A stretch of DNA of 64,000 nucleotides from an uncultured Clostridia bacterium. GTDB lineage: Bacteria; Acidobacteriota; Aminicenantia; UBA2199. Under the pieces are notes generated by a model that saw only the letters and a program-made list of their open reading frames with translations, was not told the DNA's origin and did not search any database. Positions 1,905 to 55,854 of the stretch are shown here, piece by piece. Every line of letters starts with the position of its first letter. Within the stretch, counting starts at the first letter, position 1. The position numbers and the translations under genes were made by a program. The stretch is taken from NCBI GenBank assembly GCA_964465065.1, contig CAYXHZ010000006.1:1185-65184 (forward strand), read 5' to 3'.

Positions 1905-4220
1905 TCAGGTACGGATTCGGACCATCAGGACGATGGAAACGGCGGTGAACAGCAGGTAGGGCAAGACGCTGGCCAGCAGGGGGGGCAACAGGCCGTTGCT
2001 GCCGAACGAGTTGAGAAAGGCCATCATGCCCATGAAAACCATGGAAATGATGACCGCTGCGCCGATACCGTGCATCGAGCCTTTACGGCCCATCAGGAAG
2101 GCGAACGGAATGGCGATCAGTACCATGACCAGACAGGAGAAGGGGTACAGCCGTTTCTGGTAGATCTTGGCCTGAAAGCGGGTCGGGTCGCTGTCGTTGG
2201 CCTTCAGGTAGCGCACGTAGTCGCCGAGTTGGTCGATGTTCATGAATTCGCTCGAGCTGTCGGAGGTTTTGATCTTTTTAAAGAAAGAATCACCGCCGGG
2301 GACAAGCAGTTCATACCGGGTAAACTGACGGGAGTCCACCGGTTGCGAGTCGCGAAACCGGCGCTCGGTCCCGTCGTGCAGCACCAGGGTCCGCTCGTCC
2401 TTCCAGCTTGCCGAATCGGCCGTGAGTCGGGCCTTGATCACGAAGCCGTCTTCGAGCTGGATCAGGTTGAAGTGCCGGAATTGCTGCGTTTTCTCGTTGT
2501 AACGGTCGTAAAAAAAGATCCGCCGCTGCTCGTCGACAGCCCAGTATTTCTGCACATCCTCCTGGTAGGCGGCGTTGCGGTTGCGGGCCAGGATCACGTC
2601 CAGCACTTCCTGGGCCTTACGGCTGGCCTGCGGCAGGACCTGTTCCTGCAAGCCGAAAAACAACAGGCTGACGATCAGCCCGAAACCCAGGGCCGGCAGC
2701 AGGATGCGGTGCAGGCTGATGCCGCTGACCTGAATGGTGATGATCTCGTTCTGCTTGCTCATCAGCGAAAAGGACAGCAACACGGCCGTCAGCACGGCGA
2801 TCGGCAGGGTGATGCCGACCAGTTCGGGAGTGTGGTAATAAATGTATTCGAAAACCAGGGAAAAAGGCAGGCCGTTGTTGAGGATGTTGTCGATCAGTTC
2901 CAGGATCTTGGACAGGTACATGATGGCCATCAGCGACAGAAAAATCAAGGAAAAGGTGAAAACCAGCCGGCGCAGGATGTAGGCGTCCAGGATCCGGATC
3001 AGGCCGAGACGGAGACGAGCCGGGTAGTAGCGGACCAGAACCAGGGGCTTGAAAGACTGCGGGGTCAGCCTGTTGCGCAGACGGCCCAGTCCGGCCCCCA
3101 GCCGACGCAGGGAATCCAGACGCAGAGCGGCCCCGCGGCTGGTCACCCGGAAGGCCAACAGCCCGACCAGCAGCAGGAATATGTTGGCGCCCCAGATACC
3201 GGCGAACGGCGGAATGGTTTTAGCGATGGCCAGGTTACGACCCAGGGTTATCAGGGTGTAGTAGATGAAGATCAGGGCCAGCGACAGCACGAAGCCGCTG
3301 GTCCGACCGCCCCGTCTGGTGCTGATGCCCAGCGAGACGCCCAAAAAGCCCAGAACCAGGGCGGCGAAGGGGAAGGCGAAACGGTTGTGGAGATCGATAG
3401 CCAGACGGACATTGCCCGGGTCGGCGGCTAACAGTTTCCAGACTTCTTGAACCGGCATGTGCTCCGGCCGCTTATAGACGTCCCCGCTCTGGTCCTCGGA
3501 GATGTCTTCGATCAACAGCTTGTAGCTGCTCAGTTCGTAGCTGTCCTCGGGTTTGGTGCGGTTGAAACGGTGCACCTTGGCCTGCTGCAGGGTGATATAG
3601 CCCGAACGCCGGTTCTCCGAAGTGTAGGTGAAACGCCCGCGCTCGGCCAGGACCACCAGGTCGCTCTCCACCTGTTTGGTCGAATAGAGGAAGACGTTCC
3701 TCATTTCCTTGGTCTTGGGGTCGATATCCTCGAAGAACAGGGTGTAGGAAGGAATCTCGCCGTAAAAACTGCGCGGCTTGACCTGGCTGATGGCCCGCGA
3801 CAGGAAGACCTTGGATTTCAGACGCAGGAACTGGTACTGCGCCTGCGGCGCCAGGTACATGCTCAGCAGACTGGAAAAGACCCAGGTCAGCAGCGAAAAG
3901 AGCAGAACGGGTTTGTAGAGCCGGTGGTGATGAACGCCCAGCGTCCGCAACGCCAGAACTTCCGAGTCGCTGCTCATGCGGCTCAGTCCGGCCAGAATGC
4001 CCATCAGGGTGGCCATAGGAATGGTCAGCGACAGAATGGTGGGCATGATGAACAGCAGCATGCGCGCCACGGTCAGCGGCGGCGCCCCTTTGGAAATCAG
4101 CAGGTCGGAAAGCAGGAAAAAGGTGTTGACCAGCATGGTGAAGCTGTATACCGTCAGCCCGATGAAGAACGGGCTCGATATTTCGCGCAGAACGTAGTTG
4201 TCGAAACGCTTGAGCGGCAC
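1905..4220 (-). CDS. lptFG: Fused LptF-LptG (two tandem YjgP/YjgQ permease domains) LPS export ABC transporter permease
   Basis: 771 aa. The N-terminal half starts MPLKRFDNYVLREI... (LptF/G-like DRYI-type start). A second YjgP/YjgQ-like unit begins around ...ILDAYILRRLVFTFSLIFLSLMAIMYL at about residue 400. Each half has the usual TM pattern and a large periplasmic insert. Confidence 0.75.
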   Translation of the reverse strand: MPLKRFDNYVLREISSPFFIGLTVYSFTMLVNTFFLLSDLLISKGAPPLTVARMLLFIMPTILSLTIPMATLMGILAGLSRMSSDSEVLALRTLGVHHHRLYKPVLLFSLLTWVFSSLLSMYLAPQAQYQFLRLKSKVFLSRAISQVKPRSFYGEIPSYTLFFEDIDPKTKEMRNVFLYSTKQVESDLVVLAERGRFTYTSENRRSGYITLQQAKVHRFNRTKPEDSYELSSYKLLIEDISEDQSGDVYKRPEHMPVQEVWKLLAADPGNVRLAIDLHNRFAFPFAALVLGFLGVSLGISTRRGGRTSGFVLSLALIFIYYTLITLGRNLAIAKTIPPFAGIWGANIFLLLVGLLAFRVTSRGAALRLDSLRRLGAGLGRLRNRLTPQSFKPLVLVRYYPARLRLGLIRILDAYILRRLVFTFSLIFLSLMAIMYLSKILELIDNILNNGLPFSLVFEYIYYHTPELVGITLPIAVLTAVLLSFSLMSKQNEIITIQVSGISLHRILLPALGFGLIVSLLFFGLQEQVLPQASRKAQEVLDVILARNRNAAYQEDVQKYWAVDEQRRIFFYDRYNEKTQQFRHFNLIQLEDGFVIKARLTADSASWKDERTLVLHDGTERRFRDSQPVDSRQFTRYELLVPGGDSFFKKIKTSDSSSEFMNIDQLGDYVRYLKANDSDPTRFQAKIYQKRLYPFSCLVMVLIAIPFAFLMGRKGSMHGIGAAVIISMVFMGMMAFLNSFGSNGLLPPLLASVLPYLLFTAVSIVLMVRIRT

Positions 4221-15760: not shown

Positions 15761-16414
15761 TCAGTAGTAGATCGTCACCCGGAAGGAACCGGAATTGTCG
15801 CCGAAGTCGAAATCGTTGATGCCGATGAACAGGCGCCCGGCACGGCTCATGCGGATCGGCGCCCGGTTGTTGCCCACGTAGAACGGCGGACCATCCTCGG
15901 CCACCCGGGCGATGACGGCCCCGGTCGGCTGTGTCGGCATGGTCTTGTCCTTGTGCCAGTTGAGATTGAGCTCACCGTCCTGGAAAACCGAATTCTTGTC
16001 GTCGATGAAGATCGATCCGCTGCAGGAGAACATGATCTCCTGGCCGGTCTGCACCGTCAGACCGGTGTCGATCCATTGTTGACCGGCCTGGAGATCGACG
16101 CTGAGCGACCGTTTTTTTCGGCGCAGTTTCTGATACTTCTGCTCCACATCGTAGGCGGATTGAATGATTTGCGGGGCTGCCGAGGTGAACTCGATCTTCC
16201 ATACCTTGCCGATCGGTATCCTCAATGTATGACTTTCCGCCTGCCCCTGTTTGAAGACATTGAAAAAAATCGTCTCGTAGCGCAGATCGACCATCTTGCC
16301 GATATACTGAGTGCCATCGGTCGTATACAGGACATGATGCTCGGCAACCAGCGCCCGGGGCCAAGCCCAGATCAAGCCCAAAAACAAACCCAGCCAAGCC
16401 AGCCGTTTACTCAT
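15761..16414 (-). CDS. Secreted protein with a C-terminal PA-IL (LecA)-like lectin domain
   Basis: Start at MSKRLAWLGLFLGLIWAWPRALVA (signal peptide). The C-terminus ..GAVIARVAEDGPPFYVGNN..RLFIGINDFDFGDNSGSFRVTIYY resembles P. aeruginosa LecA (..[38 protein letters not shown]). Start overlaps the stop of the DapF-like gene by 8 nt. Confidence 0.5.
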   Translation of the reverse strand: MSKRLAWLGLFLGLIWAWPRALVAEHHVLYTTDGTQYIGKMVDLRYETIFFNVFKQGQAESHTLRIPIGKVWKIEFTSAAPQIIQSAYDVEQKYQKLRRKKRSLSVDLQAGQQWIDTGLTVQTGQEIMFSCSGSIFIDDKNSVFQDGELNLNWHKDKTMPTQPTGAVIARVAEDGPPFYVGNNRAPIRMSRAGRLFIGINDFDFGDNSGSFRVTIYY

Positions 16415-17243
16415 CGCCAGACTCCAGATATTCTCCCTTATAAACGATCCGGGTACGGTTTTCAATAAAGATGCGGTCGCAACCGGATATTTTTATTTTT
16501 TCCCCGCTCGGCGGCAAGAAAACCAGCTCGCTCAAACCTGGTTCGAGAGCCCGGAGCACCGCGTAGGCGCCGGCCGTTCCGGTGGACGAGGACAGGGTCG
16601 CTCCGACGCCGCGCTCGTAAAAGCGGATGCCGACCCCGTCGTCGCCCCGGTCGGTGATGATCGACACGTTGGTGCGCTGCGGAAAGATCGGTTGGCGGTG
16701 CAGTTCTTCGGCCAAGGCCAGCGCCTCGGCCGTCGATTGTCCGGCTGCCTGAAAGAAAACGACCTGCGGGTTGCCGACGGCGACCGGGTAGAAACGGAGG
16801 GAACGGTGATAAAACCCGTCACGCCAGCGCCGCTGCGGGTCGGCATTGAGAAAAGGGAAAAATCGGCTGTCGGCGAAATCCGGAAGCCCCAGATCGATCC
16901 GCAGACGGTAGCCGTTGTCCCGGCTGTCCAGCAGGCGGTGGCGATAGAGGTCGCGAATCCCGGCCAGCTCGATGGTATCGCCGTTCGCACCCAGATGGCA
17001 CAAGAGCGCGCTCAGACCGGCCATACCGTTGCCGGACAGTTCGGCCTCCAGGCCATCCTGGTTGAAAATGCGGAAAGAAACCGGCCGAACGGACCGGTCG
17101 TAAACGACCAGCCCGTCCGCGCCCGCACCGTAGTGACGGTCGCACCAGCGCCGCACCTGCGTCGGCGAAGGTGGCCCGCTCAGCTCGGCGGCATCGACCT
17201 GTAAAAAGTCGTTACCGCCGCTGCAGCTCTTGTAAAAAACCAT
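16407..17243 (-). CDS. Diaminopimelate-epimerase (DapF) family protein with both catalytic cysteines replaced (Cys73->Ser, second Cys absent)
   Basis: MVFYKSCSGGNDFLQVD (GNDF motif). FRIFNQDGLEAELSGNGMAG aligns to E. coli YRIFNADGSEVAQC73GNGARC. FYERGVGATLSSSTGTAGAYAV aligns to [21 protein letters not shown] with no Cys at all. ATG at 17243 overlaps the degP TGA (TGATG). Confidence 0.7.
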   Translation of the reverse strand: MVFYKSCSGGNDFLQVDAAELSGPPSPTQVRRWCDRHYGAGADGLVVYDRSVRPVSFRIFNQDGLEAELSGNGMAGLSALLCHLGANGDTIELAGIRDLYRHRLLDSRDNGYRLRIDLGLPDFADSRFFPFLNADPQRRWRDGFYHRSLRFYPVAVGNPQVVFFQAAGQSTAEALALAEELHRQPIFPQRTNVSIITDRGDDGVGIRFYERGVGATLSSSTGTAGAYAVLRALEPGLSELVFLPPSGEKIKISGCDRIFIENRTRIVYKGEYLESGDE

Positions 17244-18712
17244 CACTCTTCGGGAATGGTGAACGGAATGACCTGCTCGTTGCCCTGGCGGTTGATGTAG
17301 AGGTAAACGCCGTCACCCGGTGAACGCCGGCCCATGAGCTCGCGGAACTGTTTGACCGATCTCAGTTCGGTCCGGCCGACGGCGATGATGACGTCGTTGG
17401 GCCGCAAACCCTGCTGATGCGCCGCACCGCCGCGCACCACCTGGTCGACGACGACGCCCTCGTCGGTCTTGAGCTTGCGGCGCGAGGCCTCGGCGGCGTT
17501 GTTGTCCACCAGCACCATGCCCAGATCGATGAGCCCGCCGTCTTCCCCTTCGGCCTGGATGGTCTCCGATTCCGGAGCCTCGCCGACGATGACCGTGAAC
17601 GAGATGGGCTTGCCGTCACGCACAACGCCGACCGCCAGCTTTTCTCCCGGTTTGAGTTCGGCCACTTTGATGCTCAGCAGGCGGGATTCCTTGATCGGTT
17701 CTCCGCCCAGCGAAGTGATCAGATCGAGCTTCTTGAGGCCCGCCTTCTCGGCCGGTGAACCTTTCTCGACCGAGCGGATCAGGATACCGGGCTGACCGAT
17801 ATCGAACTTCTTGGCTCTTTCCTCGTCCATTTCCTCGATTTCCACACCCAGCCAACCGCGGATGACGCGGCCGCCCTTCTTGAGGTCCGCCACGACCCGT
17901 CTGGCCAGATTGGAGGTGATGGCGAAACCCAGGCCGATGCTGCCGCCGCTGTTGGAAACGATGACCGAGTTGATACCGATGACCTGGCCCTGCATGTTGA
18001 TCAGCGGACCGCCGGAATTGCCCTGGTTGATGGCGGCGTCGGTCTGGATGAAATCCTGGTACTGCAGACCGGACTGACGCAGCCCTTCCATGTAACGGCC
18101 CTTGGCGGAAATGATGCCGCTGGTGACGGTCAGATCCTGGTAGAGAGGGTTGCCGATGGCCAGAACCCATTCCCCGACCTCGGCCTTGTCGGCGTCGCCC
18201 ATTTCCAGGTAGGGGTGATCGCCACCCTCGATCTTGAGCAGGGCCAGATCGGTCTTGGAATCCTCGCCGATCTTCTTGGCCTTGTATTTCTTCTTGTCGA
18301 TGGTCTCGATGGTGATGCTGATGGCGTCCTTGACCACGTGATGATTGGTAATGATGTAGCCGTCGGCGGAAATGAAGAAGCCCGAACCCAAACCTTCGAC
18401 GGGTTGACGTCGCTGCGGCTGCATGTTGAAGAAGCGGTCGAAGATGTCATCGCCGAAAGGGGACTGGCTCCTTTCGGAAATGATCTGCGTCGACACCTTG
18501 ACCACGGCCGGCCGCACTTTGCGTACGATCGGGGCGAAGCCCATACCCTGGGCCGGATTGTTGTCGGTGGCCGCCAGGACCGGAGTCGCTGTCAATCCCA
18601 AAACCTCGGCGGGAGGATTATCCGTCGCATCCCGGTTCAGAAAACCCGTGAAGGCCAGAGTGGACAGGCCGACCAGGAATCCCAGCAAACTGGCTAAAAC
18701 AACTTTTTTCAT
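17243..18712 (-). CDS. degP: Periplasmic serine endoprotease DegP/HtrA (trypsin-like domain plus two PDZ domains)
   Basis: Signal peptide MKKVVLASLLGFLVGLSTLA. Catalytic motifs NHHVV, DLALLK and GNSGGPLINMQGQVIGINS. Two PDZ-like C-terminal regions. AGGAGG SD 6 nt upstream of the ATG at 18712. Confidence 0.9.
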   Translation of the reverse strand: MKKVVLASLLGFLVGLSTLAFTGFLNRDATDNPPAEVLGLTATPVLAATDNNPAQGMGFAPIVRKVRPAVVKVSTQIISERSQSPFGDDIFDRFFNMQPQRRQPVEGLGSGFFISADGYIITNHHVVKDAISITIETIDKKKYKAKKIGEDSKTDLALLKIEGGDHPYLEMGDADKAEVGEWVLAIGNPLYQDLTVTSGIISAKGRYMEGLRQSGLQYQDFIQTDAAINQGNSGGPLINMQGQVIGINSVIVSNSGGSIGLGFAITSNLARRVVADLKKGGRVIRGWLGVEIEEMDEERAKKFDIGQPGILIRSVEKGSPAEKAGLKKLDLITSLGGEPIKESRLLSIKVAELKPGEKLAVGVVRDGKPISFTVIVGEAPESETIQAEGEDGGLIDLGMVLVDNNAAEASRRKLKTDEGVVVDQVVRGGAAHQQGLRPNDVIIAVGRTELRSVKQFRELMGRRSPGDGVYLYINRQGNEQVIPFTIPEE

Positions 18713-18760
18713 GTGCATCCTCCTTTGTATAGATAGTCTATCGGTATTCGATTACTATCA

Positions 18761-19000: not shown

Positions 19001-20227
19001 ATGGGCATGAACATACCTACTGGCAGCGTCTCGACCCTCAGCCTTCGTATCGACAATCGTTGCCGGCTGTCCGGCGACAGCCAGTCCCCCAGAACGGACA
19101 GAAAAGGCAAACCGGCCCAGGCCGACAACGATTTCGAACAGGCGATCAGTACGCAGAACCTTCCCGAGCCCCAGCCCCCGAAAGAGCAGGAAACCGAAAC
19201 ATCCGGAACCGAAACGCAAACCAGACCCGCCGACAGTCCGGCCAGTGCCGACGACACGGCGGCGGCCGATTTGCCAGCCTCTCAGGAACTTCAGGGCGAA
19301 ACGGCCGACTCCGATCCGGCCAGAGCGCAGGAACAAACCCGGACCGATGCCCCGGCCCAGATCCAGACCGAACTGCGCTTGCCGCAACCCCAGTTTATCC
19401 AGCAAACGGCAGCGATCGCCTTCGACAGCGCCCTGGTCGATCTCTCGGCAGACGCAGGACCGCAGACCGCCAAGCCGGTGCCGGAGCAGGCGCCTGCCAC
19501 GTCCCGGACCGATCCGGCCGCCAGCAAGGTCATCCAGACCAATATTCCCGCGCAGACCGAGCCAAGCCCCTTGCCCTGGACAGACGGCGAACAGAACGAA
19601 GGCGCCGGCACTGCGACAGTCTCCGAACCGGTTTTACCCAAAAAAATTCCCGAAAAGGGACTGCCAACCGGACTCGGCCACAGCCAGCCGGAGAACGGCC
19701 TGACGCCGCCAACCGGCGTTCCGTCCGGTGAGGCAGCGGTCAATACGGCCCAGATCAGCCAGGCGACGCCGGTCTGGCAGAACAGCCCGGTCAACCCCGC
19801 CGACATCATCGACCAGGTCCGGGTGCAGATCCTGCAGGGCAGCAAGTCGGGTGAAAAAAAGATCACCATGCAATTGCAACCCCCGGAACTCGGCAAGATG
19901 AGCATCGAACTGTCCCTGAGCGACAAACAGATCGAGGCCCGCATCTACACCGAACATCAGGTGGTCCGCGAGGTGGTACTGTCACAGATCGAGCAGCTGC
20001 GCTCGCAACTGGCCCAGGAAGGTTGGAATCTCAACAAGGTCGATGTCAACATCGGCACCTTTCGCGAACAGCAGGACCAGACGGCCCAGGCTGCACTGCA
20101 ATCGCTCAGAGCCGGCTACCGTGGCGGCGCGGCCGCCGGTCGGGACGGGCAAACGGAAAGCGCCGATACCGCTCAGCGGGTCTGGCAACCACCGGGATTG
20201 GGCAGAAGGGTGAACCTGATCGTCTGA
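19001..20227 (+). CDS. Protein with a FliK (flagellar hook-length control) C-terminal Flg_hook-like domain and a Pro/Gln/Thr/Ala-rich low-complexity N-terminus
   Basis: The C-terminus ADIIDQVRVQILQGSKSGEKKITMQLQPPELGKMSIELSLSDKQIEARIYTEHQVVREVVLSQIEQLRSQLAQEGWNLNKVDVNIG matches the FliK C-terminal domain. No other flagellar genes are nearby. The start codon is uncertain. Confidence 0.55.
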   Translation: MGMNIPTGSVSTLSLRIDNRCRLSGDSQSPRTDRKGKPAQADNDFEQAISTQNLPEPQPPKEQETETSGTETQTRPADSPASADDTAAADLPASQELQGETADSDPARAQEQTRTDAPAQIQTELRLPQPQFIQQTAAIAFDSALVDLSADAGPQTAKPVPEQAPATSRTDPAASKVIQTNIPAQTEPSPLPWTDGEQNEGAGTATVSEPVLPKKIPEKGLPTGLGHSQPENGLTPPTGVPSGEAAVNTAQISQATPVWQNSPVNPADIIDQVRVQILQGSKSGEKKITMQLQPPELGKMSIELSLSDKQIEARIYTEHQVVREVVLSQIEQLRSQLAQEGWNLNKVDVNIGTFREQQDQTAQAALQSLRAGYRGGAAAGRDGQTESADTAQRVWQPPGLGRRVNLIV

Positions 20228-22070: not shown

Positions 22071-22652
22071 TCAGGAGTTGATCTGGTTGAGCAGGGACTG
22101 CTCGTCCTGCGAGGATTTGATCTTGATGAAGATGTCGGACCATTTCTCCTGGGCGTCCAGGATGAAATCGATCACTTCGCGCACCGCACCCCGGCCACCG
22201 TAGCGCTTAGCGATGTAGTGGGCGATCCGTTTGATCAGAGGGTGCGCGTCCCCGACCGCCGCCGAGAAACCGACCATACCCATCACCTCGGCGTCACCGA
22301 TGTCGTCGCCGATGTAACAGACCTGATCCTTGGTCAGTTCGTATTTGTTGAGCAGCTCCATCAGGGGTTCGGTTTTATCGCTGATCCCTTCGTAATAGTT
22401 TTCGATCTGCAGCTCCTGGGCCCGGCGGCGTACCGTCTGCGACACTTTTCCGGTGATGATGGCCGTATGCAGACCGGCCAGACCGGCAAAAACCACACCG
22501 GTGCCGTCCTTGACGTCGAAAGACTTGATCGTTTCCCCGGAAGGCAGCATGAAAAAACGCCCGTCCGACAAGGTGCCGTCGACATCCATCACAATCAGCT
22601 TCACGCGTTTGGCCAATTCTTTCTGGTCCATTAAATCATCTCCGTACGCCAC
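22071..22652 (-). CDS. kdsC: KDO 8-phosphate phosphatase KdsC (HAD family)
   Basis: LIVMDVDGTLSDG (HAD motif I) and ..GDDIGD.. (motif IV). An alternative start at MDQKEL (ATG 22631) would overlap the kdsD stop as TAATG. Confidence 0.8.
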   Translation of the reverse strand: MAYGDDLMDQKELAKRVKLIVMDVDGTLSDGRFFMLPSGETIKSFDVKDGTGVVFAGLAGLHTAIITGKVSQTVRRRAQELQIENYYEGISDKTEPLMELLNKYELTKDQVCYIGDDIGDAEVMGMVGFSAAVGDAHPLIKRIAHYIAKRYGGRGAVREVIDFILDAQEKWSDIFIKIKSSQDEQSLLNQINS

Positions 22653-23599
22653 AGGTCATGCAAGTGTATCAAGCCCAGCACCCGTTTCTGTTCGACCACC
22701 GCCAGCGAGGTGATACGGTGGGTCTCCATGATCTTGAGCGCTTCGACCGCCATTTTCCCGGGGGCGATGGTCAGGGGCGAGCGGGTCATCACCTCGTCGA
22801 CGAAACCGCTGCGGAAATCGGTTCCGCGCCGAATCAGGCGGCGCAGGTCGCCGTCCGTGACCACGCCATGAAGGATACCGTCGGCATCGACCACCAGACC
22901 GACGCCAAACTTCTTCTCGTCGATCAGATCGACCACCTGCAAGAGCGGGGTGCGCGGGGCGATCAGGGGCAGCTCGTCGCCGCGGTGCATCAGGTGGGAA
23001 ACTTTGAGCAGCTTTTTACCCAACGCCCCGCCAGGATGGTAGATGCGAAAATCCTCTTCCTGGAAGCCGCGCTTCTGCATCAGGGCAATCGCCAGCGCAT
23101 CGCCGACGGCCAGAGTCAGGGTGGTCGAGGTGGTGGGAACCAGGCCGAAGGAGCAGGCTTCGCGCTCGACGCTGCAGTCCAGAACCACTTCGCTCTGTTG
23201 GGCCAGGGTCGAATCCAGATTCCCGACCATGGCGATCAGCTTGACACCGATGCGTTTGAGGTAGCCGATCAGGCGGATCACCTCCTCCGTCTCGCCGCTG
23301 GTCGACAGAGCCAGTACCGTATCGTCTTCGTTGATGATACCCATGTCGCCGTGCAGGGCGTCGGCGGGGTGCAGAAACACCGCCGGAGTGCCGGTCGAGG
23401 TCAGCATGGCCGAAATCTTCTTGCCGATCAGGCCCGATTTGCCCATGCCGGTGACGACGATACGGCCACGGCTGTCCATCATCAGTTCCACGGCCCTGAC
23501 GAAACTGTCATCCATACGGTCCGCGCCGATCAGCAGCGCCTGAGCCTCCGTGCGCAGAACTTCCCGGCCGACGGCCAGGATATCTTCATTCATGGGCAA
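22631..23599 (-). CDS. kdsD: Arabinose-5-phosphate isomerase KdsD/KpsF (SIS domain plus tandem CBS domains)
   Basis: GRIVVTGMGKSGLIGKKISAMLTSTGTPAVFLHPADALHGDMG is the SIS motif. Two C-terminal CBS domains. Confidence 0.85.
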   Translation of the reverse strand: MPMNEDILAVGREVLRTEAQALLIGADRMDDSFVRAVELMMDSRGRIVVTGMGKSGLIGKKISAMLTSTGTPAVFLHPADALHGDMGIINEDDTVLALSTSGETEEVIRLIGYLKRIGVKLIAMVGNLDSTLAQQSEVVLDCSVEREACSFGLVPTTSTTLTLAVGDALAIALMQKRGFQEEDFRIYHPGGALGKKLLKVSHLMHRGDELPLIAPRTPLLQVVDLIDEKKFGVGLVVDADGILHGVVTDGDLRRLIRRGTDFRSGFVDEVMTRSPLTIAPGKMAVEALKIMETHRITSLAVVEQKRVLGLIHLHDLWRTEMI

Positions 23600-24419
23600 T
23601 TCTCCAACGGTACAAATCGGTCAGCTTCTGCAGTAACGGCCGCAGCTGGCCAAGGTTCAGGGCGTTGAGACCATCCGACTTGGCCCGGTCCGGATCGGGA
23701 TGGACCTCCATGAACACCCCCCGGGCGCCGCTGATGATGCCGCATTGGGCGATGGTCGGGATGAAGCGGGGCAAGCCGCCGGTCACCTGCCCGGCCGCAC
23801 CGGGCTGCTGGACTGCATGGGTGGCGTCGATGATCACCGGGCAGCCGCTGTCGGCCATGATCGGCAGCGATCGCATGTCCACCACCAGATCGCGGTACCC
23901 GAAAGTCGATCCACGCTCGGTCAGCATCAGCCGCCGTCGGTCCGGACCGCGCACCTCGTCGATCTTGCTGACCACATGGGCCATGTCCTGCGGTGCCAGA
24001 AACTGTCCCTTTTTGACATTGAGCCAGCAGGAACTTTTCGCCGCCTGGAGCAGCAGGTCGGTCTGCCGGCACAGAAAGGCGGGGATCTGGATGACATCGA
24101 CCACTTCGGCCACCGCCGCCACCTGGACGGATTCGTGGACATCGGTCACCAGCGGCAGACCGGTTTCCTCTCTCACTTTCGCCAGGATGCGCAGACCTTC
24201 GTCCAGGCCCGGTCCGCGAAAGGAATGAATGGAAGATCGGTTGGCCTTGTCGAAGGAAGCTTTGAAAAGAAGCGACAGGTTCAGGTCATGTTTCAAGTCG
24301 AGCAGGACCCGGGCGATGTGCAGAGTCAGTTCCTCGGATTCGATGACACAGGGACCGAGAATGAAGAGGGGGGTGTCGGCCGGAAAGGATTGAGTTCCGA
24401 TCGTCAACGCATCGCCCAT
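23586..24419 (-). CDS. kdsA: 2-dehydro-3-deoxyphosphooctonate aldolase (KDO8P synthase) KdsA
   Basis: ..LFILGPCVIESEEL.., ..KASFDKANRSS.., ..PVIIDATH... Start chosen at MGDALTIGT (ATG 24419); the track ORF extends to 24455. Overlaps the kdsD start by 14 nt. Confidence 0.85.
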   Translation of the reverse strand: MGDALTIGTQSFPADTPLFILGPCVIESEELTLHIARVLLDLKHDLNLSLLFKASFDKANRSSIHSFRGPGLDEGLRILAKVREETGLPLVTDVHESVQVAAVAEVVDVIQIPAFLCRQTDLLLQAAKSSCWLNVKKGQFLAPQDMAHVVSKIDEVRGPDRRRLMLTERGSTFGYRDLVVDMRSLPIMADSGCPVIIDATHAVQQPGAAGQVTGGLPRFIPTIAQCGIISGARGVFMEVHPDPDRAKSDGLNALNLGQLRPLLQKLTDLYRWRIAHE

Positions 24420-24494
24420 GGTCGGAATTGTACCAGATATGGGGCGGCTACGCAATGGGAAAGATGGAACGAGACCGGCAGGACCGTAAAAAAC

Positions 24495-52326: not shown

Positions 52327-53066
52327 ACTCCCCGAAAAAACGGCAGTTCTTTCTCTCTGGCCAGCAGGGTCTTCATGCGCTTGACCGCCTCGGGAAGACC
52401 GATCAGCGCCGCATTGGCGATGATGGTGTGGCCGATGTTGAGTTCGTCGATCTCGTTGATCTCCACGATGGGCCGCACGTTCTGGTAGGTCAGACCGTGT
52501 CCGGCCAGCACCCGCATTTTGAGCTTGTCGGCGTATACCGCCACCTTGGCGATCTTGTCGAGCTCGAGCAAGGCGTAGCTGTTGTTCCAGTTGTGGGCGT
52601 ATTCACCGGTGTTGATCTCGATGAGACGCACGCCGATGCGATGGCAGGCCTTGACCTGATCCAGATCGGGATCGATGAAGATCGACACACTGATGCCGGC
52701 CGCCCGCAGGTTGCCCATAATCTCCTCGATACGGTCGGCGAACATGATCACGTCGAGCCCGCCTGTGGTGGTCACCTCCTCGGAGCTTTCCGGCACCAGA
52801 GTGACGGTATCGGGCTTGTTTTTCAGCGCGACTTTCACCATTTCCATGGAAATAGCCATTTCCAGATTCAGGTGCGACTTAACCGTCTTGCGCAGCAATT
52901 CCAGGTCGCGCTCCTGCATGTGCCGTCTGTCCTGACGCAAGTGCATGGTGATGCCGTCGGCACCGGCGAGTTCGGCCAGAGCGGCGGCGTAGACGGGATC
53001 GGGTTCGATGGTCTTGCGTGCTTCTCGGATGGTGGCGATATGATCGATGTTGACCGAAAGTTTCAT
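52323..53066 (-). CDS. pdxJ: Pyridoxine 5'-phosphate synthase
   Basis: MKLSVNIDHIATIREAR.., ..HLRQDRRH.., ..GHGL.. are classic PdxJ blocks. ATGA-coupled on both sides. Confidence 0.9.
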   Translation of the reverse strand: MKLSVNIDHIATIREARKTIEPDPVYAAALAELAGADGITMHLRQDRRHMQERDLELLRKTVKSHLNLEMAISMEMVKVALKNKPDTVTLVPESSEEVTTTGGLDVIMFADRIEEIMGNLRAAGISVSIFIDPDLDQVKACHRIGVRLIEINTGEYAHNWNNSYALLELDKIAKVAVYADKLKMRVLAGHGLTYQNVRPIVEINEIDELNIGHTIIANAALIGLPEAVKRMKTLLAREKELPFFRGV

Positions 53067-54406
53067 TGTGTTTCCCCTATGCTGTCCACGATAAAAGAAT
53101 GCAAACGATCTATCCAGGTGTCGACGACCTGCATGTCGTCGGCTTCGACCATGATCCGGATCTTGGGCTCGGTACCCGAATAACGGATCAGCAACCGGGC
53201 CTGCTTTGCGGCCGTCTCCCGCCGGAATTCCTCCTGCAGGGCCTGCAAGCCGGGCCAGTCCTCAAGACGCGGTTTTTGCGTTACCCGCAGACTTTGCAGC
53301 CGCTGCGGGAAACGCGTCATGCGGAAATCCCGCCCCAGCTCGTTCAAGGCCATGAAATGATGCAGAGCGGTCAACAGGCCGTCGCCGCTGCGCTGCAGCG
53401 AACGGATGATGACATGCCCCGAAGACTCCCCGCCCAGTTCGGCGTCGAATTGCTGCATCTGGCGGTAAACATGGCGGTCGCCGACATCGGCCCGAACCAG
53501 TTCGACACCCAACGAACGCAGAGAACATTCCAGTCCCAGGTTGGACATGACGGTTCCGACCACGACAGGCCGGAAATCGGGCGTCCGTTTGAGTCGATAT
53601 CCGGCCAGCAAATACAGGATGTCGTCGCCGTCGCTGATCCGGCCGTCCCGGCCGTCTACCAGCAAGACCCGGTCGCCGTCGCCGTCGAAAGCGATGCCCC
53701 AATCGGCGCCTTCGCTCCTGACTTTTTCCAGCAGCGCTTCCGGGTACTGCGAGCCGCAGCGCTCGTTGATGTTGCGACCGTCGGGCTGGTCGGACCGGAC
53801 AATCAGCCGGGCGCCGGTCCGCGCCAACACTTCGGGTGCCACACCGCACATGGCCCCGTTGGCCGTATCGACCAACAGGCTGAGACCGCGCAGGTCGATC
53901 CGGCTGGCCTGATCGAGCAGAAAATCCAGGTATGGCCGGGGATCGGCATCCAGCACCGGCGCGCTGGCCGCATGGGTAGAACCGGCAAGGCTCCGACCGG
54001 GGCTTTGTTCCCGGAAAATTCGGCTGATCTTCGCTTCCAGCTCATCGGGAATCTTCTCGCCGCAGGCGTTGAAGAGTTTGATGCCGTTGTCCTCGGCCGG
54101 ATTGTGGGAGGCGGTGATCATCATCCCGTACCTCCAATTCCCGTGCCCCAGCAGGTAAGACAGTCCCGGAGTGGGCAACACGCCAAGTCTGCCGACCGGA
54201 CAATGTCCGGCCAGACCGTCCATGACCCGATTCAGTATTTCCGGCCCCGAAAAGCGGGTGTCCATCGCCGTCAGCAGGGCCGCCCCGTCCATGACCGAGG
54301 CCATGGCCGCCCCCAGACGACGCAAGCCGTCAGCTGTAAACGGAAAATCGCCGAACCTGCCCCGAATGCCATCGGTACCGAACAGAGATTCCGCAGTCAA
54401 CGACAT
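53063..54406 (-). CDS. glmM: Phosphoglucosamine mutase
   Basis: LFGTDGIRG.., ..ITASHNPAEDNGIKLF.. (active-site Ser), ..GDGDR... Confidence 0.9.
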   Translation of the reverse strand: MSLTAESLFGTDGIRGRFGDFPFTADGLRRLGAAMASVMDGAALLTAMDTRFSGPEILNRVMDGLAGHCPVGRLGVLPTPGLSYLLGHGNWRYGMMITASHNPAEDNGIKLFNACGEKIPDELEAKISRIFREQSPGRSLAGSTHAASAPVLDADPRPYLDFLLDQASRIDLRGLSLLVDTANGAMCGVAPEVLARTGARLIVRSDQPDGRNINERCGSQYPEALLEKVRSEGADWGIAFDGDGDRVLLVDGRDGRISDGDDILYLLAGYRLKRTPDFRPVVVGTVMSNLGLECSLRSLGVELVRADVGDRHVYRQMQQFDAELGGESSGHVIIRSLQRSGDGLLTALHHFMALNELGRDFRMTRFPQRLQSLRVTQKPRLEDWPGLQALQEEFRRETAAKQARLLIRYSGTEPKIRIMVEADDMQVVDTWIDRLHSFIVDSIGETQ

Positions 54407-54409
54407 CGG

Positions 54410-55096
54410 CTATTCCTTTTTTTCTTCATGACTGTTTTTCGGGCTGTCGACCACAAAGGTGACATCCACGCTGGCGGCGCCTTCGAAGCGGATGATTCCG
54501 TCCTGTTTGAGCAACGGCACCGTAATGACCTGGTTGCGGTCGATATCTTCCAGGTTGATGGCGGACTCTCCTTCGACACGGTCGATTTTGATGATCTGGG
54601 ACAGATAGCCGAACAGTACCACCCGTTCGGGGGAAAGACGACGTTCCAAAAGCCGGACGCCACCGGGCAATCGTCCCTTATAGATGATCCGGACAGGCAC
54701 TTCGCGGGTACTGAACTCGTCGCTGATCACCCGCACGATCCGCGGTTGAATCTGACGCACCTCGATCCCTTCCGGCACCTGCAGATAATCCTCGGAAAAG
54801 AAGGCACTCTCCCCGGCCCGTTTGACGTTCTGCAGGTCGATGTTGAGCGCCAGCGAGGAAGCATCGAGTTTTTCGATCAGGCTGGAGATGCCGTAAACCC
54901 TGACCAAGACCTTGGTCGGCTGGATTTCCCGGACATCGATATGCGCCAGAACACCGTGATAGGTGACCCCCACCTCCAGATTTTTCTCGGAATATGCCCG
55001 AGCCTGACCGACGACGAAGGCCCAGATCAGCAAAGACACCAGCAGGGCCAGCAGCTTGAGATGAAGGTTTTTGAACAACAGTTTTTTCGGGTTCAT
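54410..55096 (-). CDS. cdaR: YbbR-like domain protein CdaR (regulator of diadenylate cyclase)
   Basis: N-terminal TM segment plus tandem YbbR-like repeats. Lies between cdaA and glmM, as in canonical cdaA-cdaR-glmM operons. Confidence 0.75.
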   Translation of the reverse strand: MNPKKLLFKNLHLKLLALLVSLLIWAFVVGQARAYSEKNLEVGVTYHGVLAHIDVREIQPTKVLVRVYGISSLIEKLDASSLALNIDLQNVKRAGESAFFSEDYLQVPEGIEVRQIQPRIVRVISDEFSTREVPVRIIYKGRLPGGVRLLERRLSPERVVLFGYLSQIIKIDRVEGESAINLEDIDRNQVITVPLLKQDGIIRFEGAASVDVTFVVDSPKNSHEEKKE

Positions 55097-55854
55097 TTAT
55101 AAACGAATTGCTGCAGACGGGATTTCAGGCCTTCGCGGTCCAGTCCGCGTACAAGCTCTCCGTCCACGGCGAAAGAGATTTTACCGGTTTCCTCGGAAAC
55201 GACGATGACCACGCAGTCGGTCTGCTGGGTGATGCCGATGGCGGCCAGGTGACGGGTGCCGCTGGGACTCAGTTCCAACAGAGGCGGCAGGGGGAAAAAG
55301 CAACGGGCCGCCTCGATGCGCTCCTCCTTGATGACCACCGCGCCGTCGTGCAGCGGCGATCCCGGAGTGAAAATAGTCAGCAGCAGATCCTTGTTGACCA
55401 TGGCGTCCAGACGGACCGGTTTGTTGACGTAATTCTCGACCCGCATTTTCCGCTCGATGGCCATGATGGCGCCGATCCGCGACAGGGACAGGGCCATGAC
55501 GGCGTTGAGGATCTCGTCGAGCACTTCCGAGCGGACGCTGGCGCTGTACCGTTTCTTGAGCCGGCCGCCGATCTCGGCCAGGATGCGCCGGATTTCGTCC
55601 TGAAACAGGATGATGATGGCCAGGATCAGGTAGCTCAGGAAGGCGTTGAGTATGAAAGAAAAGGCGGTCAGCTGCAGCAATCGCCCGAATACGGCGGCCA
55701 CGCCGATCAGGATCAGGCCGACGGCCACCTGGTAAGATTTGGTGCCCTTGATCAGCAGGATCATGTAGTAGAAGATGACCGTCATGAACAGGATGTCCAG
55801 AAAATCGTTGAGCCCGAAACGGGAAAAAGCGTTGACCAGATGGCTCCAGTTCAT
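55093..55854 (-). CDS. cdaA: Diadenylate cyclase CdaA (DacA), membrane-anchored DAC domain
   Basis: Three N-terminal TM helices, then DAC motifs ..GAIMAIER.., ..LHDGAVVI.., ..GTRHLAAIGITQQTDCVVIVVSEETG... Confidence 0.85.
   Translation of the reverse strand: MNWSHLVNAFSRFGLNDFLDILFMTVIFYYMILLIKGTKSYQVAVGLILIGVAAVFGRLLQLTAFSFILNAFLSYLILAIIILFQDEIRRILAEIGGRLKKRYSASVRSEVLDEILNAVMALSLSRIGAIMAIERKMRVENYVNKPVRLDAMVNKDLLLTIFTPGSPLHDGAVVIKEERIEAARCFFPLPPLLELSPSGTRHLAAIGITQQTDCVVIVVSEETGKISFAVDGELVRGLDREGLKSRLQQFVYK

Follow-up and report, generated by a model that had tools for sequence, protein, structure and literature searches.

A DapF-family protein of Aminicenantes-like Acidobacteriota with serine in both catalytic cysteine positions

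Diaminopimelate (DAP) epimerase, DapF, is the textbook two-cysteine epimerase that works without pyridoxal phosphate (PLP), and it is an antibacterial target; its best inhibitors, of the aziridino-DAP type, alkylate the catalytic cysteines. Here we describe a DapF-family gene in a 64,000-nucleotide stretch of contig CAYXHZ010000006.1 (assembly GCA_964465065.1, titled uncultured Clostridia bacterium; GTDB class Aminicenantia of the Acidobacteriota), hereafter the window, whose product carries serine in both catalytic columns. The window protein shares with canonical DapFs (E. coli 4ijz, H. influenzae 1gqz/2gke, Anabaena 9mro and A. thaliana 3ejx) the same two-domain fold (template-modelling (TM) score ~0.8), the length, the order of motifs and the DAP-contact residues, and with the Anabaena and plant-type enzymes it also shares a Pro/Ala-Glu-x loop. 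It differs from them in being only 24-30% identical, in the Ser/Ser pair, in Ser220 and Gln160, and in the replacement of Met, Val and Leu packing residues. Serine at a catalytic cysteine position within the same fold is also seen in the engineered H. influenzae DapF mutants C73S and C217S (2q9h, 2q9j). We consider that the window gene probably encodes a functional DapF (EC 5.1.1.7), the ortholog of Aminicenantes-like Acidobacteriota, which would work with an oxygen-based acid/base pair.

The Ser/Ser protein, its fold and its pocket

The open reading frame (ORF) was called at 16407..17246 on the minus strand. Starting from the ATG at 17243, it encodes 278 amino acids with the N-terminus MVFYKS, which agrees with the N-termini of relatives (MIFYKT). 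The gene and the residues that set it apart are as follows:

16407..17243, minus strand: dapF-family gene, 278 amino acids, Ser/Ser variant (ORF, PF01678, TIGR00652, AlphaFold2, Foldseek)
16407-16409, minus strand: dapF stop codon
17034..17036, minus strand: Ser70, codon TCC, in the column of the catalytic Cys73 of E. coli DapF (alignments and DNA)
16587..16589, minus strand: Ser219, codon TCG, in the column of the catalytic Cys217 of E. coli DapF (alignments and DNA)
16584..16586, minus strand: Ser220, codon TCC, replacing the Gly after the second catalytic residue (representative alignment)
16764..16766, minus strand: Gln160, codon CAG, in the column of His159, turning GNPH into GNPQ (alignments)

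A preliminary description of this DNA, made from its letters alone, had placed the protein in the DapF family with Cys73 changed to Ser and the second catalytic cysteine lost, and had suggested aligning the active-site columns. The family assignment is borne out by a Pfam scan, in which PF01678 matched well above its cutoff (E = 9e-20, 71.4 bits versus 34.7) and no other family matched, and by the NCBIfam equivalog for DapF, TIGR00652, which was passed by a narrow margin (119.4 bits versus 114.65). Using phmmer against PDB sequences, we obtained matches to DapFs and to the DapF-like DcsC alone. In HMMER alignments to solved DapFs, Ser70 lies under the first cysteine (elSgng / emCgng) and Ser219 under the second (tlsSstg / tlaCgtg), and a MAFFT alignment with E. 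coli DapF gave the same columns, C73 and C217. Both catalytic positions are therefore Ser and not Cys, as had been read for the first; the cysteine described as lost has also been replaced by serine. The GNDF and YERG blocks are retained, as described before, at residues 10-13 and 209-212; the other motifs are AELSGNGM at 67-74 (ELSGNG at 68-73), GNPQ at 157-160 and TLSSSTGTAGA at 216-226. With Ser70 and Ser219 in place of the thiol pair that marks a canonical DapF, the alignments make the window protein a Ser/Ser variant and a non-canonical member of the family. Cys34, which is invariant, was considered as a relocated catalytic residue and rejected: the canonical Anabaena DapF carries the same CDRH motif.

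We built an AlphaFold2 model on an alignment of 34 family members. The model is confident (predicted local distance difference test score (pLDDT) 93, predicted TM score (pTM) 0.89), it has the two-domain alpha/beta fold of DapF, and it places the starts of two helices, whose N-termini face the active site, at residues 71 and 220, directly after both serines. Foldseek against the PDB returned DapF structures as all of its best matches (TM 0.71-0.81), with 2q9h at the top and the PhzF/YddE, HisR and proline racemase families at far lower scores.

In Anabaena DapF, DAP is contacted by N13, N66, G76, N77, N164, N197, E215, R216 and T226 (PMC12039745), which in E. coli numbering are N11, N64, G74, N75, N157, N190, E208, R209 and S/T219. 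All of the window equivalents are present (N11, N61, G71, N72, N158, N192, E210, R211 and T221), and they are invariant in the family of the window protein, which marks this as a DAP pocket. Glu210 is retained too, as are the helix-cap residues. What differs in the window pocket is the two Cys-to-Ser replacements, the change of Gly to Ser at 220 and the change of His159 to Gln at 160.

We searched 1.84 billion cluster representatives exhaustively with HMMER and obtained 9838 DapF-family matches. Among the best 150 of these, 148 were full-length and were scored, with 80 Ser/Ser, 61 Cys/Cys, 5 Ser/Cys and 2 others. The DAP-binding set is present in at least 79 of the 80 Ser/Ser representatives. 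The column of residue 220 holds Gly in 60/61 Cys/Cys and 56/80 Ser/Ser representatives, and Ser in the 21/80 that form the window clade, while Gln occupies the His159 column in 15/80 Ser/Ser representatives versus 1/61 Cys/Cys representatives. In this representative alignment, it is packing residues that change together with the Ser/Ser state, and no new base appears. Cys/Cys enzymes mostly have Met at positions 6, 60 and 72 (E. coli numbering), Val at 206 and Leu at 242; in Ser/Ser proteins positions 6, 60, 72, 206 and 242 (6, 57, 69, 208 and 244 of the window protein) hold T/Y/A, F/L/V, L/I/K, F/I and T/M, respectively. Ser/Ser DapFs lack the Met residues that lie around the thiols of Cys/Cys enzymes at positions 6, 60 and 72, and have a bulkier Phe or Ile at position 206. 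This Met-poor pocket could reflect a sulfur-poor repacking, or selection against oxidisable residues.

Ser/Ser lineages and their gene contexts

Sequence comparison indicates that the Ser/Ser state is a widespread property of lineages and not a private defect of the window gene. Among the matches listed, all 120 of the closest homologues are Ser/Ser (AE[LI]SGNGM and x-T-x-x-S-[SAT]-T-G); their identity to the window protein is 40-97%, and most of those that carry a name are Candidatus Aminicenantes or Acidobacteriota. The full-length relatives include one at 97% identity and many at 40-63%. Two further families are likewise Ser/Ser in 120/120 of the matches listed: the AEKSGNGL...ERGAGYTLASGSSSC family, with members named Planctomycetota and Anaerolineae, and the AEISGNGT...SSGTGSC family of Terriglobia, with members named Candidatus Sulfotelmatobacter. 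The searches with these two families each gave at least 8000 candidates, nearly all with E<=1e-10, and covered the DapF family broadly. The Terriglobia Ser/Ser matches listed are environmental sequences only, with no cultured strain among them. Across GTDB species genomes, we also found Ser/Ser in metagenome-assembled genomes (MAGs) labelled Gemmatimonadetes, Longimicrobiales, Opitutales/Opitutia, Chloroflexota and other Acidobacteriota. A Planctomycetota MAG has a Ser/Ser DapF with a GNAT acetyltransferase domain joined to its C-terminus (422-425 amino acids; P0399 / L172 4599-5867, and P0382), and a further GNAT gene follows the fusion gene.

We computed a neighbour-joining tree with the two catalytic columns masked, and nearly all Ser/Ser sequences still fell in one clade. 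Parsimony on this tree gave 6-7 changes per catalytic site. Natural hybrids occur as well: a Chloroflexi and a Puniceicoccales MAG each carry a Ser/Cys form, and L054 carries a Cys/Ser form (hybrid loci L054, L058 and L059; hybrid sequences P0158, P0192, P0224, P0249 and P0266). These hybrids are possible evolutionary intermediates. In the AEKSGNGL family, the first site is encoded by AGY in 71 cases and TCN in 16, and the second by TCN in 64 and AGY in 23. A switch between AGY and TCN needs two substitutions and passes through Cys or Thr. The presence of both codon families at both sites indicates very long selection for Ser, and the switches are compatible with Cys and Ser being interchangeable. 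TIGR00652 scores are 121-167 bits for the other members of the window clade and 155-249 bits for the other Ser/Ser clades.

The gene contexts of other Ser/Ser lineages point to the DAP pathway. In three loci of the AEKSGNGL family (L014, L090 and L145), the Ser/Ser dapF is followed within 2-130 nucleotides by dapL (TIGR03542, 542.6 bits versus a cutoff of 364.7) and then by a gene for a LysA-like decarboxylase, whose best match, TIGR01048 at 243 bits, is below that model's cutoff. DapL makes LL-DAP and LysA consumes meso-DAP; a dapF gene between these two steps should therefore be an epimerase. In 10 Clostridia-type loci, dapL likewise occupies the slot directly after a Cys/Cys dapF. In a Terriglobia locus (L170 5001-8411), the Ser/Ser dapF is followed by an LD-carboxypeptidase gene (S66) and then by mpl (TIGR01081, 455 bits versus 388.7), which encodes the ligase for L-Ala-gamma-D-Glu-meso-DAP. 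A second locus (L076 5974-9424) has the Ser/Ser dapF and the LD-carboxypeptidase, with mpl confirmed in L170 only. This dapF-ldcA-mpl cluster looks like a peptidoglycan-recycling unit.

We then scanned genome contigs with two patterns, EAE[LI]SGNGM and [YF]PV[SA][VI]GNP[HQ], the second of which ignores the Cys/Ser state. From genomes labelled Acidobacteriota, Gemmatimonadota or Opitutales, the scan returned only Ser-containing DapFs, and it found no second DapF type in Aminicenantes-labelled genomes, though a pattern scan of this kind is non-exhaustive and would miss many canonical DapFs. Apparent extra copies of low identity or partial length in L040, L053 and L056 were rejected as second genes: L053 and L056 carry frameshifted versions of the same gene, and L040 carries a variant of it. 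A complete Opitutaceae genome has a single DapF together with DapL, and DAP was detected (PMC5303756); this case is suggestive only, and only if that DapF is of the Ser/Ser kind. We consider it about as likely as not that Ser/Ser DapFs are fully competent, thiol-free and cofactor-independent epimerases that use a Ser alkoxide/hydroxyl pair, and that entire lineages have no other DAP epimerase (Aminicenantia, Terriglobia, and those to which the MAGs labelled Gemmatimonadota, Planctomycetota, Chloroflexota and Opitutales belong).

Some copies in this collection deserve separate mention. In two nanopore Aminicenantes MAGs (L053 and L056), dapF is frameshifted or carries insertions, with a repeated PASPPVGSAALR stretch in L053; these lesions are probably assembly errors rather than pseudogenes. 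L040 has an intact variant copy with AELSGHGM. Carriers of the gene arrangement found in the window (htrA-dapF-X217, below) include several genomes whose titles read "uncultured Clostridia bacterium" (binchicken MAGs), Patescibacteria, Omnitrophota, Chrysiogenales and Deferrimicrobium (L015, L016, L027, L028, L032, L034 and others), and these non-Aminicenantes titles are probably placeholders or mark mis-binned contigs.

The htrA-dapF-X217 locus and its surroundings

In the window, dapF lies between an htrA gene and a gene for a 217-residue secreted protein, X217:

17243..18718, minus strand: HtrA/DegP-type serine protease with a trypsin domain and two PDZ domains, upstream of dapF (Pfam; TIGR02037, 442.8 bits versus 416.2)
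17241..17245, minus strand: TGATG junction, in which the TGA of htrA shares one base with the ATG of dapF (DNA)
15761..16414, minus strand: X217, 217 amino acids, secreted protein with a signal peptide, downstream of dapF (gene calls on identical contigs)

The TGATG overlap with the degP stop had been recognised in the preliminary description and is correct. The abutting coordinates of htrA and dapF recur across related loci: HtrA is directly upstream in 30/36 window-clade species-level genome loci, and in 25 of those 30 the tblastn match of HtrA ends exactly where the dapF match starts. On the other side, the start of X217 overlaps the end of dapF by 8 nucleotides (16407-16414), and a homologue of X217 is found downstream in 24/36 window-clade loci. 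X217 matched no Pfam or NCBIfam family. Its C-terminal ~70 residues gave a weak profile match to the galactophilic lectins PllA/PA-IL (LecA) (PDB 5odu, E = 0.005), and its invariant ending reads GINDF.F.DNSG.F.V.IYY; a single-sequence AlphaFold2 model reached pLDDT 48, too low for use. The htrA-dapF-X217 arrangement is conserved down to ~40% protein identity. A promoter and terminator scan around this operon gave nothing above background.

Over LptFG and NusA-IF2-DUF503-DHH-TruB, the window is syntenic with an Acidobacteriota MAG, and the DNA looks like ordinary chromosome. A single 771-residue ORF with two LptF/LptG permease matches (1905-4220, minus strand) is an apparent LptF-LptG fusion, and the syntenic Acidobacteriota locus (L008) has a 760-residue counterpart. 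Divergent from htrA, a 408-residue protein (19001-20227, plus strand) has a long N-terminal region rich in Pro, Thr, Gln and Ala and carries, at its C-terminus, a FliK hook-length-control domain (PF02120, E = 5e-19). Among the scanned ORFs near it, no further flagellar genes were seen. The window also holds two clusters related to the envelope: one for the Kdo (3-deoxy-D-manno-octulosonate) pathway (22071-24455, minus strand), with a KdsC-like HAD phosphatase, a KdsD-like SIS+CBS protein and a KdsA-like DAHP_synth_1 protein, and a CdaA-YbbR-GlmM cluster with the cyclic di-AMP (c-di-AMP) cyclase (53063-55854, minus strand).

Possible mechanism, alternative functions and comparison with known systems

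If the window protein is a thiol-free DAP epimerase, it would interconvert LL- and meso-DAP for lysine and peptidoglycan synthesis, with Ser70 and Ser219 as the acid/base pair that flanks the alpha-carbon from its two faces. The two serines would presumably be activated by the dipoles of the two helix N-termini and by the retained Glu210, which are the only obvious helpers, and proton transfer may perhaps be relayed through Glu210. The shorter C-O side chains would be compensated by the repacked, sulfur-poor pocket. Translation of the gene is probably coupled to that of periplasmic HtrA, with the gene for the secreted lectin-like protein next in most relatives, and htrA-dapF-X217 may be read as a cell-envelope maintenance operon.

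Several observations weigh against a thiol-free epimerase, most strongly the behaviour of laboratory mutants. When Cys is exchanged for Ser in DapF-type enzymes, less than 0.1% of the activity is left (PddB, with reference to M. tuberculosis DapF; PMC8225329), and the exchange is used because it "hinders catalysis" and stalls enzymes for crystallography (PMC11602996; PMC12039745). Since single Cys-to-Ser mutants are nearly dead, natural Ser/Ser enzymes would need compensating changes, for which the repacked pocket is a candidate; no His, Lys, Asp or Tyr has been gained universally in Ser/Ser proteins that could serve as a base. The conserved neighbours in the window clade are HtrA and X217, a secreted protein without a family, and not lysine genes, and no dapL, lysA or second dapF occurs within the 64-kb window. 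Even in the AEKSGNGL family, the dapL-lysA linkage is found in only 3 of ~85 loci. Finally, the window clade is the most derived of the Ser/Ser clades, with the changes at Ser220 and at His159 and a TIGR00652 score for the window protein only 5 bits above the cutoff.

The preliminary description had suggested that the protein could be an inactive DAP or peptide binder, or an enzyme with different chemistry. It is conceivable that the window clade has been neofunctionalised, still binding DAP, a DAP-like or a DAP-containing molecule but catalysing a different or one-directional reaction, such as an elimination or dehydration or the epimerisation of a more acidic substrate, with a role in envelope stress or muropeptide handling. 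Such a function would explain the fixed coupling to htrA and to the gene for the secreted lectin-like protein. The htrA-dapF-X217 order is conserved together with its overlapping stop and start codons, and a new function is in keeping with the absence of lysine genes nearby, with the clade-specific changes at 220 and 160 and with a TIGR00652 score barely above the cutoff. In the proline racemase family, the members in which Cys has become Thr are dehydratases (trans-3-hydroxyproline), and 6r76 is among the Foldseek matches of the window protein. A natural Thr/Cys Asp/Glu racemase that is unidirectional offers a further precedent (PMC8142540). We nevertheless regard this as unlikely, because the distal and proximal DAP-binding set is invariant and the substrate is thus almost certainly DAP. 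The clade also nests among Ser/Ser DapFs of lysine and peptidoglycan clusters, the pattern scan, non-exhaustive as it is, found no second DapF type in Aminicenantes-labelled genomes, and the synteny within the class may be merely inherited gene order.

A catalytically dead protein, kept as a DAP-binding sensor or regulator or as a moonlighting partner, seems to us quite improbable. Both thiols are gone, single Cys-to-Ser mutants are nearly inactive and the DAP-binding residues are kept, all of which such a protein would accommodate, and DapF is reported to take on a non-enzymatic partner role, the stimulation of E. coli RppH. However, catalytic positions usually drift in pseudoenzymes, and here Ser is invariant at both sites across several hundred sequences, with identities that reach below 35%, and through codon-family switches; Glu210 and the helix-cap residues are also kept, and the dapF-dapL-lysA operons require an epimerase between DapL and LysA. 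Taken together, the invariance of the serines across a very large and old clade, the near-universal retention of the DAP-binding residues in Ser/Ser representatives and the Ser/Ser genes that fill the dapF slot before dapL-lysA or adjoin ldcA-mpl disfavour an inactive binder or different chemistry, which stands as a minority possibility, particularly for the derived window clade (SSSTG, Gln160). The frameshifted nanopore-MAG copies (L053, L056) might suggest faulty sequencing or assembly, or a pseudogene in decay, but such an artefact is already refuted and we give it virtually no credence: the ORF is intact, seven independent assembled contigs encode the identical protein, which is therefore not a read error, full-length homologues exist at 97% and at 40-63% identity, and the AlphaFold2 model is confident.

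A thiol-free DAP epimerase would matter in several ways. The conservation of a natural Ser/Ser pair in the dapF slot suggests that the chemistry is apparently possible without thiols, and it raises the mechanistic question of which compensating changes make serine work. If the window protein and its relatives are epimerases, the view that this enzyme class needs a thiolate/thiol pair would be overturned; if they are inactive or have another function, the "dapF" calls and the reconstructions of lysine and DAP pathways are wrong for these phyla. Cysteine-directed DapF inhibitors would miss several environmentally dominant phyla, and oxidation-insensitive epimerases may become available for biocatalysis. 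Annotation rules should be reconsidered where they demand the Cys pair or pass over its absence in silence. So many natural DapF orthologs with neither thiol, some of them in dapL-lysA operons, would be unexpected to a specialist in cofactor-independent racemases. We found no description of a natural Ser/Ser DapF in the literature searched, which is no proof that none has been published, and it is apparently an undescribed active-site variant of a known enzyme family.

Compared with the wider group of related folds, the window protein stands within the DapFs. The proline racemase-like family was considered and rejected, as PF01678 is the sole Pfam match and the structural similarity is low (TM 0.63-0.64, 12-17% identity, root-mean-square deviation 6-7 Å), and so were the PhzF/YddE isomerases, with their Glu-based active site (no family match, TM 0.63-0.69, 12-19% identity). 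The O-ureidoserine racemase DcsC (7vdy, phmmer E = 4e-16), the histidine racemases HisR/CntK and the Dab racemase PddB have the same fold and the same two-base logic, but all are Cys/Cys, and none has the set of DAP distal-site residues kept in the window protein. Among enzymes in which a catalytic cysteine has naturally given way to a hydroxyl, the trans-3-hydroxyproline dehydratases (Cys-to-Thr) have a single residue replaced, belong to a different family and catalyse dehydration. EcL-DER, a Thr/Cys Asp/Glu racemase, likewise has one thiol naturally replaced by a hydroxyl with the fold retained, belongs to another family and is unidirectional (PMC8142540). The serine-bearing DapFs returned by the PDB sequence search are engineered single mutants only. 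The Cys-to-Ser forms of H. influenzae and M. tuberculosis DapF, PddB and HisR are laboratory single mutants with ~0.1% activity or less, whereas the window protein is a natural double Ser under strong purifying selection and with co-varying pocket residues. It is the three other natural Ser/Ser families, AEKSGNGL/GNDY (Planctomycetota, Anaerolineae, Chloroflexota and Opitutales), AEISGNGT of Terriglobia and FERSGNGL of Gemmatimonadota, that share with the window protein the Ser/Ser pair, the binding residues and the clade; unlike it, they have Gly next to the second Ser and, for the most part, His159, their TIGR00652 scores are much higher, and they stand in a dapL-lysA or ldcA-mpl context rather than beside htrA.

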